This document shows, piece after piece, positions 303 through 4,525 of a stretch of DNA of 4,525 bases. Origin of the DNA: a virus (Duplodnaviria > Heunggongvirae > Uroviricota > Caudoviricetes); the IMG/VR virus record IMGVR_UViG_2751185970_000012. The stretch is one strand, 5' to 3'. The notes beneath the pieces are model-generated. The model saw only the letters and a program-made list of their open reading frames with translations, had not been told where the DNA came from and did not search any database. A program made the translations under genes and the position numbers. The first letter of the stretch is position 1. Every line of letters starts with the position of its first letter.

Positions 303-382
303 TCAGGCGGCCTCCTGATGTTCTGAGGGTGCAGAAATCCCTCCGGTTAAGGATTAAATTTTATTTGCTGTGCTAAATTTAA

Positions 383-838
383 TTATTCAGTTTTTATTCC
401 TGCTCTCAAAACAGCCTCTGCCATTCTGATATCCGGATTTTCTGAAATCATCTTTTCCGGCGAGTCGCAATCACCACCACATTCAGTTATGCGTTCATGA
501 CCAAAACGAATTGTGGTTTTGTGCGCATTAATCATTTGTGTAAGCGCATCTGTCAATTCTGCAATGCGTTTGTCTTTAACTTCCAGCTCTTTCAGTAAAG
601 CCAGTACGTCAGGAGCGCTAACATCAACGACGGTTACGCGCGATTTCAGGTAATGCTCATCCGCAAAAGTTCGACCAGTTTTAAAATATCCATCATCCCC
701 CTCACCTGTGCAGGCATACACAATATGCGTTCTGGAAAATATGCGCTGTATCGACATTTCATCGCCACAAACAGGACATTCCGGCACCTGAATTGGTGAA
801 TAACGTTCACGTAATGCCTGGTAATTAGTCTTGCACAC
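383..838 (-). CDS. Hypothetical phage protein, 151 aa, with CPVC and CGGDC cysteine motifs and a central coiled-coil-like segment (LKELEVKDKRIAELTDALTQ); possibly Ead/Ea22-like, family uncertain
   Basis: ORF starts with GTG at 838-836 preceded by TTTTTCAGGAGA (SD-like, 6-nt spacer); stop TAA 383-385; start overlaps upstream gene stop by 14 bp. Confidence 0.6.
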   Translation of the reverse strand: MCKTNYQALRERYSPIQVPECPVCGDEMSIQRIFSRTHIVYACTGEGDDGYFKTGRTFADEHYLKSRVTVVDVSAPDVLALLKELEVKDKRIAELTDALTQMINAHKTTIRFGHERITECGGDCDSPEKMISENPDIRMAEAVLRAGIKTE

Positions 839-1130
839 TGGCTGTCTCCTGAAAAATCACCGCATGCCCCAGTTTCTCCGCCAGCGCCAGTTCTGCCTTA
901 GCGCCTGCTGACCGCTGCCAGCCTTTCAGCATGTAAATCGCATCCACACAACGAATCATCGCCATGCAGATATCCATGTACTGCGGCTGTGTCAGCCCGT
1001 CCGGAAGTACTGCCGGGTTTAAGACGGTATGCCCTTCCCGTTTCAGTTCCTCTTCCGCATTGTGAAACGCCTCACGGTTGAAATTTTTATACCCGGTCAT
1101 TGGACCGGCGATATAGACTCTCACCCTCAC
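825..1130 (-). CDS. DUF4406-like small protein (nucleoside 2-deoxyribosyltransferase-like fold), 101 aa
   Basis: N-terminal VYIAGPMTG and downstream LKGWQRSAGAKAE motifs match the DUF4406 pattern (..IYIAGPMTG...NPA...GW..S.GA..E) as I recall it; GTG start at 1130-1128 overlaps upstream TGA as GTGA; AGGAGG 7 nt upstream. Confidence 0.75.
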   Translation of the reverse strand: MRVRVYIAGPMTGYKNFNREAFHNAEEELKREGHTVLNPAVLPDGLTQPQYMDICMAMIRCVDAIYMLKGWQRSAGAKAELALAEKLGHAVIFQETASVQD

Positions 1131-1549
1131 GCCATCACCTCCTGAAAATTACCCTGATAAAACGACAATATGCGCTGCATAACTTCGCTCTTCCGGCACT
1201 CGCGACAGATTATGTTTAGGCGACTGTCGTAGCGACGTATTTCTCCGTCAGGTAATGACCAGATAAGGTCCGGATCAACCGCAGATGGTTTCTTCAGCTT
1301 TGCCCTTGAGAGCTTTTTACGGGCATTTTGCCAGTCCTTACGCGCCTGTTCAGACGGGAATAACCCGTAACCAGAGTTGTATACATCGCCACTGGCAACC
1401 AGCTCTCTGGCCAGAACGCTCATCAGATATCTTGTTGCCCCAGTTTTAGCTTCCAGTTGTCGTAACGTCTCGCGCCCACTCTGGCGTACGAGTTCAAGAA
1501 CCTGCCCTTTAATTTTTTCCCGCTCTTCTTGTGTAAAAACTTTTGCCAC
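1127..1549 (-). CDS. Hypothetical protein, 140 aa, basic, with possible winged-helix-like N-terminal region; function unknown
   Basis: ORF with GTG start at 1549-1547 preceded by TTTTCAGGAGG (4-nt spacer); lies directly downstream of the replication initiator in the same operon. Confidence 0.6.
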   Translation of the reverse strand: MAKVFTQEEREKIKGQVLELVRQSGRETLRQLEAKTGATRYLMSVLARELVASGDVYNSGYGLFPSEQARKDWQNARKKLSRAKLKKPSAVDPDLIWSLPDGEIRRYDSRLNIICRECRKSEVMQRILSFYQGNFQEVMA

Positions 1550-1589
1550 AAGCCCTCCTGAAAATTACCTCATGACCAGAAATTAACAC

Positions 1590-2660
1590 TTACCCCCTGA
1601 AGCCCGGCGGAATTTCGTTATCCGGTTCAGAAATATGATTCACACAACGCTGGTTGTTCGTGCCGCTTACCGGGAGCAACCAGGGGTTCTCAAAATTCCG
1701 GTCCGGTCCAAAAAACGTCGTCGCTCGCTGAACAAATTCCGTTCCCGTTTTCCCGGTAGCCGCCAGGTATCTTGCGTAACGCCTCACGCCATCCAGCATG
1801 GCCTCTGGTGGCACCCCCTCGCGTAATCTGGCCTTCCAGGCACTGAAAGCGGATTTCTTCGGGTTTGCCCCGGCACGCAACGGGTACTCCCGCCAGACCT
1901 GTTCGAACACATCCGGATAATCCACTCGTCCCACAGACTGCCCGGTGTTTTCCGGGACTACCCGATCGGCTTCCCGCTGAATGGCGGAATCGGCTTCAGG
2001 CTGCTGCAGTTGGTGTGATTGCTCCGGACTTGCGGTCATCGCCTGCTGCACAGCGCCCGAATCGGCTTTCAGCGCATACGCTGAATCGGCTTCCGGTGTC
2101 GTGCCTGCTGGCTGACCAGGATTGACGGTCTGAACATCCCCTGCCTGGTTCGTGGCGTTTTTTACGCCATGGACCATAGTGTTTTGATCTTCTTGATCTG
2201 TATCTTTATCTGTATCTTTATCTGTCGTGACTCGTCGTGACATGTGCGTGACATATCGTGACGCGCCGTGACAATCGCCATTTTGTTCCCGCTTTCTTTC
2301 CCTCTCTCGCTGCGCCCTCTTGCGCTCTGCAGGAGATTTTGCGGTTTGCGAAATATTGCCGTTGTCCTCTTTCAGCACCTGGCGTTTTTCCCATCCAGTG
2401 ATTAAATCACCATCAAGTACCCGCCCCTGCATCGTCTGCAAAATTGAATCAATTACCTCTTCTGTCACGTCGAGCGCACTTGCCAAATCTTCTGTCGTGA
2501 CATCAATGTGACCTCGCGTGACATTTCGTGACGCGCTCACCAGGAGGTGGATATACACTGCCATCACTGTTGCAATTGGCTGCCCTGACACCCTGGCAAT
2601 TGTTCGCCACTTAGGGTCATTTGGCATGTCATGCCATAATCTGAGCCAGGCGTTAGCCAT
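1590..2660 (-). CDS. Phage replication initiation protein (O-like / replisome organiser type)
   Basis: 356-aa ORF from ATG 2660-2658 (AGAGGTG SD about 5 nt upstream); ORF-track start at 2666 is GTG two codons earlier. C-terminal FEQVWREYPLRAGANPKKSAFSAWKARL...FFGPDRNFENPW fits the conserved F..W..YP.K.GK..A..AW motif of phage replication initiators; internal iteron-like repeats; sits after Cro-like and CII-like genes. Confidence 0.8.
   Translation of the reverse strand: MANAWLRLWHDMPNDPKWRTIARVSGQPIATVMAVYIHLLVSASRNVTRGHIDVTTEDLASALDVTEEVIDSILQTMQGRVLDGDLITGWEKRQVLKEDNGNISQTAKSPAERKRAQRERERKREQNGDCHGASRYVTHMSRRVTTDKDTDKDTDQEDQNTMVHGVKNATNQAGDVQTVNPGQPAGTTPEADSAYALKADSGAVQQAMTASPEQSHQLQQPEADSAIQREADRVVPENTGQSVGRVDYPDVFEQVWREYPLRAGANPKKSAFSAWKARLREGVPPEAMLDGVRRYARYLAATGKTGTEFVQRATTFFGPDRNFENPWLLPVSGTNNQRCVNHISEPDNEIPPGFRG
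2196..2231. repeat. 12-bp tandem repeat ATCTGTATCTTT x2 plus a diverged third unit ATCTGTCGTGAC, encoding the acidic (DKDT)n segment of the initiator
   Basis: Direct reading of 2196-2231; abuts the first CGTGAC array; two GATC sites just upstream at 2186-2189 and 2195-2198. Confidence 0.7.
2221..2272. repeat. Iteron-like array 1: five direct CGTGAC repeats at 10-11 bp phasing
   Basis: CGTGAC at 2226, 2236, 2247, 2257 and 2267 (spacings 10, 11, 10, 10); contains the 18-mer GTGACATATCGTGACGCG, nearly identical to one in array 2. Confidence 0.6.
2464..2535. repeat. Iteron-like array 2: CGTGAC / TGTGAC at 10-11 bp phasing plus one inverted copy
   Basis: GTCACG (inverted) at 2464-2469; CGTGAC 2496-2501, TGTGAC 2507-2512, CGTGAC 2517-2522, CGTGAC 2527-2532; 18-mer GTGACATTTCGTGACGCG at 2518-2535 differs by 1 nt from 2248-2265. 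Confidence 0.6.
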
Positions 2661-2731
2661 ACTCACCTCTTTTGATACCGAATCTTTTTACTCACAAATT
2701 GCCGGAAGTGATCCGGTATGAATATTGCGAG

Positions 2732-3157
2732 TCAATGCACAGCCACAATATTTCCTGCAGGGCCACCACGATTCATCTGGTTGAAACCAGCGATCGCCAC
2801 TGCGACAAAATCATCAGCGTCTCTCACCAGTCGTTCCCGCGTCTCCACTAGTTCCCGAAAATAGGCTGAGCTATGGCTGCGCATTCGGGCCACCAGCAGA
2901 GGTGGCATTGCTTTTTCGATAGCTGGTAACAACGCCTGAATTTTTTTAAGCGCATCAGGGGTGTCTTTCTCCACCCAGCGGAAAATTTTCTGAGTATTGC
3001 GAGCCAGGGCTTCCGGATGGCTGTCGTCATACAGTTCCGGGAACGTCATTCCCAGCTCGAAATACGCTTTGGTAATTTTCGCAGCCGGTACTTTTTCGCC
3101 GTCCGGATGCGCCCAGGCATTCATCGCCATGCGGATGTGTTCATGCTTGATTTTCAT
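2732..3157 (-). CDS. CII-like regulator, YdaT-like (Rac prophage type), 141 aa
   Basis: ATG at 3157-3155 with GGGAG SD 7 nt upstream; start overlaps upstream stop as ATGA; N-terminus MKIKHEHI and position right after the Cro-like gene match my recollection of Rac YdaT; not verified by search. Confidence 0.7.
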   Translation of the reverse strand: MKIKHEHIRMAMNAWAHPDGEKVPAAKITKAYFELGMTFPELYDDSHPEALARNTQKIFRWVEKDTPDALKKIQALLPAIEKAMPPLLVARMRSHSSAYFRELVETRERLVRDADDFVAVAIAGFNQMNRGGPAGNIVAVH

Positions 3158-3408
3158 GAATCAACTCCCATCAGCTTTTTCGTAGTAGTTTTATTCCTGC
3201 CAATAGTTAAAATTGCATCGGCAGAAAATAATCCGTTTGATGCAAGAGCGATTTTTTCAGCGTAATTTGTTTCGCCGGTATATTCTGTGCGAGGCAATTT
3301 TCCGTTATCCATCCATTTATAGATTGCTCTTTGGCTGACACCACAAACGTCGGCCACAACAGCAACGCGAACAGTTTTGATTACATCTTCAAGTGTTTTC
3401 TGGTTCAT
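3154..3408 (-). CDS. Cro-like HTH DNA-binding protein (YdaS-like), 84 aa
   Basis: HTH segment VADVCGVSQRAIYKWMDNGKLP; start placed at internal ATG 3408-3406 because it follows TGAGGGTGAT (strong SD, 4-nt spacer); divergent from the repressor gene. Confidence 0.7.
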   Translation of the reverse strand: MNQKTLEDVIKTVRVAVVADVCGVSQRAIYKWMDNGKLPRTEYTGETNYAEKIALASNGLFSADAILTIGRNKTTTKKLMGVDS

Positions 3409-3487
3409 ATCACCCTCACAATGTGAACTTTGAGTACATGCCATAACAGAACTGACAGTACATTCAAGAGCGAATATCATTGAACTT
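3409..3487. promoter_or_regulatory. Divergent promoter/operator region between the Cro-like and repressor genes (OR-like)
   Basis: 79-bp intergenic region between divergent starts; two AGTACAT motifs (3433-3439, 3457-3463); rightward -35 CTGACA 3452-3457, 17-bp spacer, -10 TATCAT 3475-3480, ending 7 bp before the repressor ATG. Confidence 0.5.
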
Positions 3488-3907
3488 ATGGTTCATGAAG
3501 ATAAAGCGCGTAAAGAGTTCGCCAGTAGGCTTGCGCTAGCCTGTGAAAACGCTGGTTATGAACAACATGGAAGGCAGGCAGAAATTGCCCGTCGAATGAA
3601 ATTAACACCAAAAGCGGTTAGCAAATGGTTTAATGGCGAAACAATTCCTCGCCGGGAGAAATTAAGGGAATTAGCAACACTAATAGGAACAACACCAACC
3701 TATCTTTTGGGAGAGGATACAGAAGAAAGTGGACAGGTACGTTTCTATCAGGAGTTAAATCCAAGACAAAAAATCATCATTGACCTTCTGGACGAGCTCC
3801 CTGACAGTGAGACAGATGAACTTTTAAAAACTCTTGAAGAGAAAAAACAGAAGTACAATGCAATTTACGAAGAGTTAGCACGAAAGAAAAAACAAAAAGC
3901 CTCTTAA
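3488..3907 (+). CDS. XRE-family HTH repressor, DicA/RacR-like (CI analogue without S24 peptidase domain), 139 aa
   Basis: HTH segment QAEIARRMKLTPKAVSKWFNGETIPRREKLRELATLIGTTPTYLLGED; acidic/basic helical C-terminus; no peptidase domain; divergent from the Cro-like gene. Confidence 0.8.
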   Translation: MVHEDKARKEFASRLALACENAGYEQHGRQAEIARRMKLTPKAVSKWFNGETIPRREKLRELATLIGTTPTYLLGEDTEESGQVRFYQELNPRQKIIIDLLDELPDSETDELLKTLEEKKQKYNAIYEELARKKKQKAS

Positions 3908-3970
3908 ACCAGCATAAATCCGGTAGCGCCTTCCTCCGGGTTTGTGCTTCACTTTATCCCATCTCATTTT

Positions 3971-4030
3971 TTTACACACAAAATGTACCATAAGCACTTT
4001 ACAACAATGAACGCAAAGTACATTATATAC
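3971..4030 (+). promoter_or_regulatory. Candidate PL-like promoter/operator downstream of the repressor gene
   Basis: ATGTAC 3983-3988 (reverse complement GTACAT) and AGTACAT 4017-4023, the same motif as in the OR-like region; -35 TTTACA 3998-4003, 17-bp spacer, -10 CATTAT 4021-4026. Confidence 0.35.
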
Positions 4031-4204
4031 CTGCCACCCACCCCGCCCCACAGAATGCAGGGCAATACTTCGAGTTACCAGGCAGTGGTCAGGGGTTAAG
4101 TAGCCAGCCCGAGGCGTAAGAACATGACGGCAGGGTTCAACTTTAATAACTATGCAGCAGGTTTTTGTTCCGCTACCCCGGCGTTAAGGGGAAATGAGGT
4201 CAGC

Positions 4205-4228
4205 ATGGATACTATCGATCTTGGGTAA
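4205..4228 (+). pseudogene. 5' remnant of a rightward ORF (MDTIDLG...) interrupted by the IS1 insertion
   Basis: ATG 4205 preceded by TGAGG (5-nt spacer); reading frame runs directly into the IS1 terminus at 4224 and stops at TAA within it. Confidence 0.3.
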
Positions 4229-4525
4229 TGACTCCAACTTACTGATAGTGTTTTATGTTCAGATAATGCCCGATGACCTTGTCATGCAGCTCCACCGATT
4301 TTGAGAACGACAGTGACTTCCGTCCCAGCCTTGCCAGATGTTGTCTCAGATTCAGATTATGTCGCTCAATGCGCTGAGTGTAACGCTTGCTGATAACGTG
4401 CAGCTTTCCCTTCAGGCGTGATTCATACAGCGGCCAGCCATCCGTCATCCATACCACGACCTCAAAGGCCGACAGCAGGCTCAGAAGACGCTCCAGTGTG
4501 GCCAGAGTGCGTTCACCGAAGACGT
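4224..4525 (-). mobile_element. IS1-family insertion sequence, partial: inverted copy identical to 1-302; continues beyond window end
   Basis: 4224-4525 is the exact reverse complement of 1-302; terminal repeat GGTAATGACTCCAACTTACTGATAG faces inward. Confidence 0.9.
4239..4523 (-). CDS. insB: IS1 transposase InsB, C-terminal portion (5' end outside window)
   Basis: Translation identical to the InsB fragment at 3-287. Confidence 0.9.

Follow-up and report, generated by a model that had tools for sequence, protein, structure and literature searches.

The replication initiator gene rep considered here is encoded on a 4,525-nucleotide stretch of DNA from a virus of the Caudoviricetes (IMG/VR record IMGVR_UViG_2751185970_000012), hereafter called the window, and it carries within its own coding sequence two arrays of a short, helically phased repeat, an adjoining AT-rich tract and a palindrome, which together probably form a phage replication origin. 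The rep open reading frame (ORF) comprises 358 codons on the minus strand (1590-2666); the ORF list gives a GTG start at position 2666, and the true start is likely the ATG at position 2660 (rep, 1590-2660), as judged from the starts of homologous genes and from the annotation of phage Tritos. Residues of the Rep protein are numbered from position 2666 throughout. In a profile search, Rep matches phrog_3729, 'replication initiation protein' (E 2e-255), and genes that are 98-99% identical to rep are present in the isolated phages Tritos, Evi and vB_Eco-*, where their products are annotated as replication protein O or as replisome organiser.

The hexamer CGTGAC, which reads GTCACG on the sense strand of rep, occurs nine times in the window, while shuffled sequences contain a mean of 1.83 and a maximum of seven copies (0 of 200 shuffles reached nine). 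All nine copies are located between positions 2226 and 2532. Hence, the enrichment of CGTGAC in phased arrays within the initiator gene that had been noted in an original prediction made from the bare sequence is borne out, as is the position of both arrays inside the minus-strand ORF 1590-2666. The cluster that adjoins the candidate unwinding element (array B; 2226-2272, minus strand) consists of five exact GTCACG units, whose plus-strand forms start at positions 2226, 2236, 2247, 2257 and 2267 (spacing of 10, 11, 10 and 10 bp). Read along the sense strand, the spacing is 10, 10, 11 and 10 bp, and the units fall into codon phases 2, 3, 1, 3 and 1 (C-H, S-R, V-T, S-R, V-T); they encode residues 132-147. 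The upstream iteron array (array A; 2496-2532, minus strand), positioned 260-270 bp away from array B, reads GTCACG, GTCACG, GTCACA and GTCACG on the sense strand. Its exact hexamers are present at positions 2496, 2517 and 2527, and a copy with one mismatch (TGTGAC) occupies 2507-2512. The predicted number of four to five hexamers per cluster is therefore correct for array B, while array A reaches four units (spacing of 11, 10 and 10 bp) only with the inclusion of the mismatched copy. On the sense strand, the units of array A are spaced by 10, 10 and 11 bp and use codon phases 3, 1, 2 and 1 (A-S-R, V-T, G-H-I, V-T); they encode the last part of helix 3 together with the loop preceding the helix-turn-helix motif of the protein (residues 45-57; loop 48-57).

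A single inverted hexamer (GTCACG on the plus strand; 2464-2469) is found, at the place predicted, 32 bp downstream of array A along rep, where it encodes D-V-T through GTG-ACA codons. Likewise present is the near-identical 18-mer that the two arrays had been said to share (GTGACATATCGTGACGCG at 2248-2265 and GTGACATTTCGTGACGCG at 2518-2535), and translation of the ORF yields the encoded peptides as originally given. Within the window, GTCACG is thus read in three ways: as Ser-Arg (G|TCA|CG), as Val-Thr (GTC|ACG) and as Gly-His or Cys-His (GT|CAC|G).

To compare these arrays across the initiator family, we used a set of homologues from 40 loci, with one genome per species, and counted offsets from a conserved WLRLW anchor. 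GTCACG was present at matching offsets in 19 loci (the window counted) from hosts with GC contents of 34-62%, among them Escherichia, Aquitalea, Entomomonas, Serratia, Rahnella, Bordetella, Gilvimarinus, Pseudomonas, Acidovorax, Superficieibacter and Chromobacterium. The units are positioned at offsets 116/126/136/147, followed by the inverted copy at 179 and by three to five copies around 376-406. Neighbouring units are separated by 10 bp in 78 cases, by 11 bp in 24 and by another distance in 4, and the counts for the three codon phases are 58, 42 and 44. When the genes were recoded synonymously, with the protein fixed and the codon usage of each gene retained, 0.4-2.3 hexamers per gene were obtained versus the 4-10 observed (P <= 0.0025 in 19 of 19 genes). 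We also aligned 16 loci codon by codon without gaps (mean nucleotide identity of 68%) and measured codon entropy at conserved amino acids with at least four synonymous codons. It amounted to 0.13 bits inside the hexamers (n=8) and to 1.86 bits outside of them (n=27; Mann-Whitney P 1e-5); the hexamer codons GTC (Val), ACG (Thr), GGT (Gly), CAC (His) and TCA (Ser) were invariant. The inverted copy is exact at offset +179 in 11 of the 19 loci (the window counted), and six others differ from it by one base (TGTGAC; GAT for GAC). Its Val codon is always GTG and, in 10 of the 11 exact copies, the next codon is ACA, choices that the inverted hexamer itself requires.

Variation among closely related alleles points in the same direction. 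In 47 near-identical alleles (a scan of viral contigs gave only copies that were 98-100% identical), one of 82 variable sites fell into the 60 hexamer positions, versus 4.6 expected (P 0.053), and variation within the arrays was confined to the spacers. Furthermore, in the complete genomes of phage Tritos (46 kb) and of the Aeromonas phage pAEv1818 (41 kb), clusters of at least three hexamers and pairs spaced by 10-11 bp are found only in the two rep arrays. Collectively, these data and those on the AT-rich tract described below show that the hexamers, their phasing and the tract are under selection as DNA, and that the GTCACG repeat is a DNA unit and not a peptide unit. The original prediction had proposed asking whether the hexamers and their phasing are conserved at synonymous positions in homologous genes; the recoding, codon entropy and codon phase data give a clearly positive answer. 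It had also held that the encoded protein segments are constrained by the function of the DNA, which agrees with codons that are frozen in the hexamers and saturated outside of them. Of the outcomes that it had named as counter-evidence, a homologue retaining the peptide but lacking the hexamers was not seen in the homologue set, and a similar density of hexamers elsewhere was not found in the Tritos or pAEv1818 genomes, so that a coincidence of codon usage is removed as an objection.

More distant relatives with 43-57% identity that lack GTCACG possess a different motif at the same two places and with the same spacing of 10-11 bp: GTAACG in four loci, (C)GAACGC in eight and GTGACGC in one. 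In these subfamilies, the motif is the same in array A and array B of a given locus. The commonest 5-mer of array B is present in 3.1 copies in array A of its own locus versus 0.29 copies in array A of loci with other motifs; the two arrays hence co-vary. An ACG(C) core is common to the motifs of all types. Array length changes in steps of 21 bp, which correspond to two units and to seven codons, so that neither the reading frame nor the helical phase is disturbed. Accordingly, array B contains five units in the window versus three in most relatives, and array A of Escherichia albertii is extended by 21 bp encoding an additional 'TCHGVSL', a segment also present in some E. coli alleles. At three low-GC loci from Ventosimonas and Entomomonas (L025, L027 and L033), no obvious repeated motif was found at the position of array A.

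Array B is directly followed, in the direction of the gene, by an AT-rich tract (2181-2225; sense strand ACAGATAAAGATACAGATAAAGATACAGATCAAGAAGATCAAAAC, encoding DKDTDKDTDQEDQN), a candidate DNA unwinding element. It holds three 12-bp tandem units (2191-2226) and adjoins array B at the GC minimum of rep (27.5% at 2180-2219); array B and the tract together encode residues 132-162, the start of a disordered linker. We surveyed this tract in the window and in 36 loci (37 sequences); left out were L034 and L039, in which an inserted domain replaces the usual linker. In all 37 sequences array B is followed by (C/T)AGATAAAGATA(A/C)AGA..., that is, by GATAAA/GATACA repeats encoding DKDK or DTDT. Asp codons are almost uniformly GAT in the tract (GAT/GAC 126/5) versus 338/345 elsewhere in these genes (P 4e-28), and Lys codons show the same preference (AAA/AAG 101/16 versus 315/244; P 2e-10). 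These AT-rich codons are kept also in hosts with a GC content of 59-62%, and in most cases no other part of the gene is as poor in GC as the tract. The tandem repeat flanking array B had been part of the original prediction, together with two GATC sites (positions 2186 and 2195). Both are present, but the GATC sites are incidental: they are not conserved in the family and, with 13 observed versus 10.4 expected over 36 loci, not enriched next to array B. GATC/Dam sites were consequently dropped as a feature of the origin.

Directly beyond the AT-rich tract lies an imperfect palindrome (2146-2176) with arms of 13 nucleotides, 11 of which are paired, and a loop of five nucleotides. It is GC-rich and scores as a terminator-like hairpin on the plus strand as well. 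In many relatives, a palindrome is found 20-60 nucleotides past the tract, for instance CACCTACCTCACTACGTTCGGTAGGTG in Aquitalea and Chromobacterium, where it encodes a conserved 'TSLRSVG'; the counterpart in the Shigella phage 75/02 Stx (L001, ~3043-3072) displays a compensating change at the loop-proximal pair. Palindromes past the tract are frequent in the homologues, with a small enrichment (mean score of 5.9 versus a background of 5.3), and we tentatively suggest that the palindrome at 2146-2176 may have a structural role in the origin.

An AlphaFold2 model of Rep built with a 65-sequence alignment divides the protein into four parts. A confidently predicted winged-helix DNA-binding domain at the N-terminus (codons 6-95; 2382-2651, minus strand) is arranged in the order helix-helix-helix, loop with a short strand, helix-turn-helix and beta wing; it is followed by a basic helix (residues 112-132), a disordered segment (137-244) and a helical C-terminal domain (250-320). 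The predicted fold of the N-domain may be of the replisome-organiser/DnaD-like winged-helix type, although searches of Pfam, NCBIfam and PDB sequences assigned it to no significant family, and the matches to Phage_rep_org_N (12.7 bits; cutoff 23.3) and TIGR01714 (15.4 bits; cutoff 49.8) stayed below threshold. Rep has no match to Phage_rep_O in Pfam even at E <= 10, and no protein named lambda O is found among the named matches in the top 50 from BFVD. None of 65 relatives matches a G38P-type replisome organiser profile at E <= 0.01, and an hhalign comparison of Rep with G38P of phage SPP1 gave a probability of 0.1%, i.e., no relationship. By sequence, Rep thus has no demonstrable membership in the lambda O or G38P families, nor in the RepA_N family of plasmid initiators, to which it has no sequence match. 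A relationship to YdaU/oriJ of the Rac prophage was also considered and rejected: YdaU of E. coli K-12 is annotated as DUF1376, a label never given to Rep in our family scans (the two proteins were not compared directly).

The C-terminal end of Rep (NNQRCVNHISEPDNEIPPGFRG; codons 335-358, 1593-1664, minus strand) resembles, with its tail VNHISEPDNEIPPGFRG, the extreme C-terminus of the E. coli primosomal protein DnaT. The last 24 residues (..ISEPDNEIPPGFRG) match the DnaT profile NF002770 with an E-value of 7.5e-4 and 19 bits versus a cutoff of 201, and the match covers only positions 156-179 of the 179 profile positions. The tail can be aligned to the DnaT chain 6aep; the match of the family profile to DnaT structures is weak (E 0.036). 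A DnaT-like tail recurs at the end of several relatives whose C-terminal domains otherwise differ, and a full DnaT domain (PF17948) is present in 16 of 65 relatives. DnaT itself belongs to the pre-primosome, by which DnaB-DnaC is loaded (PMC13220808). The tail may be a short motif for docking onto the helicase-loading machinery of the host.

Comparison of the relatives further revealed a modular exchange. The GTCACG cassette comprises the N-domain, the two arrays and the tract, and at least seven unrelated C-terminal modules are found fused to it; every one of these modules in turn is combined with several iteron types, and the genes located upstream and downstream of rep vary independently of the iteron type. 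The N-domain, the arrays and the tract hence travel as one cassette. In the Shigella phage 75/02 Stx, an unrelated N-domain is combined with the C-domain of the window (64% identity from residue 160 onward). Its gene contains AAGGGGCT(T/C) twice, 11 bp apart, beside a tract of (TTCCTG)n hexanucleotide repeats (L001, 3089-3156 and 3385-3405), and twice more, in inverted orientation, ~260 bp upstream. This looks like a parallel bipartite origin of different specificity; with an unrelated N-domain accompanied by its own two repeat clusters, the architecture recurs with another reader and another site. A DnaC-like loader is encoded both by pAEv1818, in which it follows an initiator with the same N-domain, and by 75/02 Stx, whose initiator has the same C-domain. 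It seems, therefore, that the dependence on a loader varies within the initiator family.

The region displays sequence features of the class of iteron origins embedded in initiator genes, as exemplified by oriλ, SPP1 oriL and RepA_N plasmids, namely phased direct repeats, maintenance of the DNA beyond coding need and an adjoining AT-rich tract. We therefore read region 2146-2532 as a phage replication origin of the iteron type with an adjoining unwinding element, embedded in the initiator gene, and assign this reading a probability of roughly 0.8. The winged-helix N-domain of Rep would bind the GTCACG cores as head-to-tail units which, being one helical turn apart, lie on one face of the DNA. 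Binding would take place at array B, with its five units, and at array A, with four units plus the inverted one, and the two arrays would probably be bridged or wrapped into one nucleoprotein complex. This complex would stress the neighbouring GATAAA/GATACA-repeat tract (2181-2225), which would then melt, and the C-terminal domain with its DnaT-like tail would subsequently recruit the DnaB-DnaC complex of the host. In neither the window (1127-1590) nor Tritos (L002, 2538-3001) is rep followed by a gene for a helicase loader or a helicase; a DUF977/Ren-like gene is next, and in Evi and vB_Eco-*, too, the DUF977 gene and no loader gene comes directly after rep. Because this phage type has no loader gene, the helicase is probably host DnaB-DnaC, reached via the DnaT-like tail.

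Several considerations weigh against this interpretation. We infer binding by Rep, melting at the tract, looping between the arrays and recruitment of the host helicase from sequence patterns; the covariation of the two arrays and the exclusive link between the hexamer type and the N-domain cassette support Rep as the putative binder indirectly. The predicted recognition region of Rep is strongly conserved across subfamilies with differing iterons, so that a reader of the variable bases is not apparent. Array A may be either a part of the origin or a regulatory site. Finally, the copy in the window is part of a prophage remnant flanked by IS1 and may itself be inactive; the case for an origin thus rests on the family, including the isolated phages with essentially the same gene. 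As to the variable bases, the loop at residues ~48-57, which is encoded by array A, is the sole hypervariable part of the otherwise strongly conserved N-domain, and a switch of the iteron type between GTCACG, GTAACG and GAACGC rewrites it (NVTRGHVDVT, NVTRDENGVT.. and NATERGRTQ, respectively). One could speculate that this loop helps to recognise the variable iteron bases, with site and reader sharing nucleotides and changing together, but we regard this idea as rather doubtful. If it were true, new origin specificities could arise by an inherent route, and co-resident prophages would be prevented from activating one another.

Plasmids offer familiar examples of iteron arrays that exert control functions, and the repeats might accordingly be Rep-binding sites for regulation, either as a roadblock autoregulating rep or as a titration or handcuffing device for copy control, with initiation taking place elsewhere. 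Both arrays are indeed located in a transcribed ORF, and array A is 230 bp away from the AT-rich tract, in the coding region of the DNA-binding domain. A purely regulatory role, however, leaves the tract unexplained: array B abuts it in all 37 sequences, and a choice of AT-rich codons held against the GC content of the host is the signature of an unwinding element. In addition, no other phased cluster is present in the two complete phage genomes, and the layout agrees with that of proven origins (PMC7466680; PMC6316719). Regulatory and origin functions are compatible with each other, and we consider regulation with initiation elsewhere unlikely. Still less probable is that the GTCACG arrays serve another protein, such as a CII/YdaT-like activator of an antisense promoter or a partition or packaging protein. 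The CII protein of lambda recognises direct repeats one turn (10 bp) apart inside coding sequences, a YdaT/CII-like gene lies directly upstream of rep, and a weak promoter-like match covers array B on the plus strand, although the number of such matches equals that expected from shuffles. The upstream regulator is nevertheless unrelated in most GTCACG loci, and YdaT-like genes accompany GTAACG-type loci as well; CII/YdaT-like sites are unlikely because the hexamer type, which tracks the N-domain cassette of Rep only, is not tied to that gene. Four or five copies in each of two arrays beside an AT-rich tract are also unlike a CII site, and the complete phages with the cassette have an integrase gene but lack partition genes.

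The modular exchange described above raises the question of whether the conserved DNA where the domains meet, above all the GATAAA-repeat tract, is kept as a recombination joint for swaps of N- and C-terminal modules rather than as an unwinding element. The mosaic junction does lie at the tract (the similarity to 75/02 Stx starts at residue 160, just past it), and C-terminal modules are shuffled among iteron types. Yet the hexamer arrays, their helical phasing and their covariation find no explanation in a joint, and the saturation of the flanking synonymous sites indicates that the conservation reflects purifying selection and not recent exchange. We give this proposal only a slim chance, and a role as a joint would in any case be compatible with origin function. 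A coincidence of codon usage with a repeated peptide motif (SR.VT), devoid of any function at the DNA level, could draw on the conservation of the encoded peptides themselves; its probability is negligible. All three frames are used to read the hexamer, synonymous recoding fails to reach the observed counts, codon choice is invariant only inside the hexamers, and for the same V-T dipeptide the inverted copy uses other codons (GTG-ACA). A repeated peptide or codon bias was excluded on the basis of the recoding test, codon entropy and three-phase use.

When viewed as an origin, the locus shares much of its layout with oriλ, in which a palindrome follows the AT-rich tract, as does the palindrome at 2146-2176 here. 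The iterons of oriλ and its AT-rich tract lie midway along the O gene, at the linker that follows the N-terminal origin-binding domain (PMC7466680), and the same order of iterons and tract at the corresponding linker is found in rep. In the O genes of Stx phages, two extra iterons add 13 residues (PMC7466680), an in-frame change in iteron number comparable to the step of 21 bp (two units and seven codons) in the rep family. In both systems, the N-domain and the origin form a cassette that is exchangeable against C-terminal modules. The lambda-like arrangement that had been claimed for rep is thus apt for the layout (iterons and an AT-rich tract at the linker between the N- and C-terminal domains), but it does not extend to homology with lambda O, to which Rep is unrelated by sequence (no Phage_rep_O match). 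Direct-repeat cores of 6-7 bp every 10-11 bp take the place of the 19-bp palindromes of oriλ that are bound by dimers; the arrangement is bipartite, in that another array is found 260 bp upstream, where the gene codes for the DNA-binding domain; and a DUF977/Ren-like gene comes next instead of a P-type loader gene, as is also the case in Tritos.

A comparable layout is known from the Bacillus phage SPP1, whose oriL is located within gene 38, encoding the replisome organiser G38P (PMC6316719). Our scan of gene 38 revealed mid-gene repeats followed by a tandem-repeat tract of 20% GC. Mid-gene repeats with an AT-rich tract and two separate binding regions, putative ones in rep, are hence common to both systems, and the predicted N-domain fold of Rep may be of the replisome-organiser/DnaD-like winged-helix type. 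Rep nonetheless scores below the thresholds of the G38P-family profiles, so that membership is not demonstrable by sequence; the second site of SPP1, oriR, is ~13 kb away, whereas both arrays of rep are contained in one gene, and SPP1 possesses its own loader and helicase. The RepA_N initiators of Gram-positive plasmids (e.g., RepA of pSK41), besides lacking a sequence match to Rep, differ in host range, in replicon type (plasmid versus temperate phage), in iteron sequence and in the C-terminal domain. The ori/crr system of satellite phage P4 is bipartite as well and consists of short direct-repeat cores (an octamer; type I iterons) that are recognised by the initiator at two loci. It differs in that the P4 alpha protein is a primase-helicase and in that the two loci are kilobases apart and outside of the coding sequence of the DNA-binding domain. 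What distinguishes the rep locus is therefore the initiator family, direct cores of 6-7 bp at each helical turn that are read in three frames, the bipartite layout, in which a second array and an inverted unit fall into the part of the gene coding for the DNA-binding domain, and a GATAAA tract throughout the examined members.

An origin embedded in an initiator gene is a familiar design, and we found no description of it for this large initiator family: the literature searched, which leaves most subscription journals outside, held nothing relevant on GTCACG iterons or on origins in the family. More than 1100 proteins match at E <= 0.001, a relative is encoded on at least 593 viral contigs, and the host spectrum extends from E. 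coli and Shigella to Pseudomonas, Bordetella and Chromobacterium. Our reading would assign a concrete origin to a widespread, uncharacterised prophage initiator family. It leaves the accepted picture of phage origin organisation unchanged, while the locus offers a clean natural case of selection at the DNA level that extends over each of the three reading frames in a gene, and of a portable cassette, an origin together with its putative binding domain, that recombines with different helicase-recruitment modules. The conserved 'SR.VT..DKDK' peptide can be interpreted as a by-product of the function of the DNA. In practical terms, prophage annotation could mark the origin and its incompatibility or specificity type by the hexamer, and the cassette could be of use in the design of mini-replicons.

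In the window, rep is part of an immunity and replication segment. A CI-like repressor gene (3488-3907) is located on the plus strand; the minus strand carries a Cro-like gene (3154-3408), the YdaT/CII-like gene directly upstream of rep (2732-3157), rep itself, the DUF977/Ren-like gene directly after it (1127-1549), a DUF4406 gene (825-1130) and an Ead/Ea22-like gene (383-838). The ~315 bp between the CI-like gene and the adjacent IS1 end (3908-4223) contain neither a long ORF nor an Rfam match; an Rfam scan of the entire window detected no RNA family, and promoter and terminator scans yielded matches at chance level. The lambdoid prophage fragment as such extends from position 303 to 4223, between two inverted IS1 ends: positions 1-302 and 4224-4525 form a perfect 302-bp terminal inverted repeat that corresponds to the C-terminus of InsB and the terminal inverted repeat of IS1. 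This bracketing of the 3.9-kb segment by inverted IS1 copies could be the remnant of a composite-transposon-like structure or an assembly artefact at IS1 copies.

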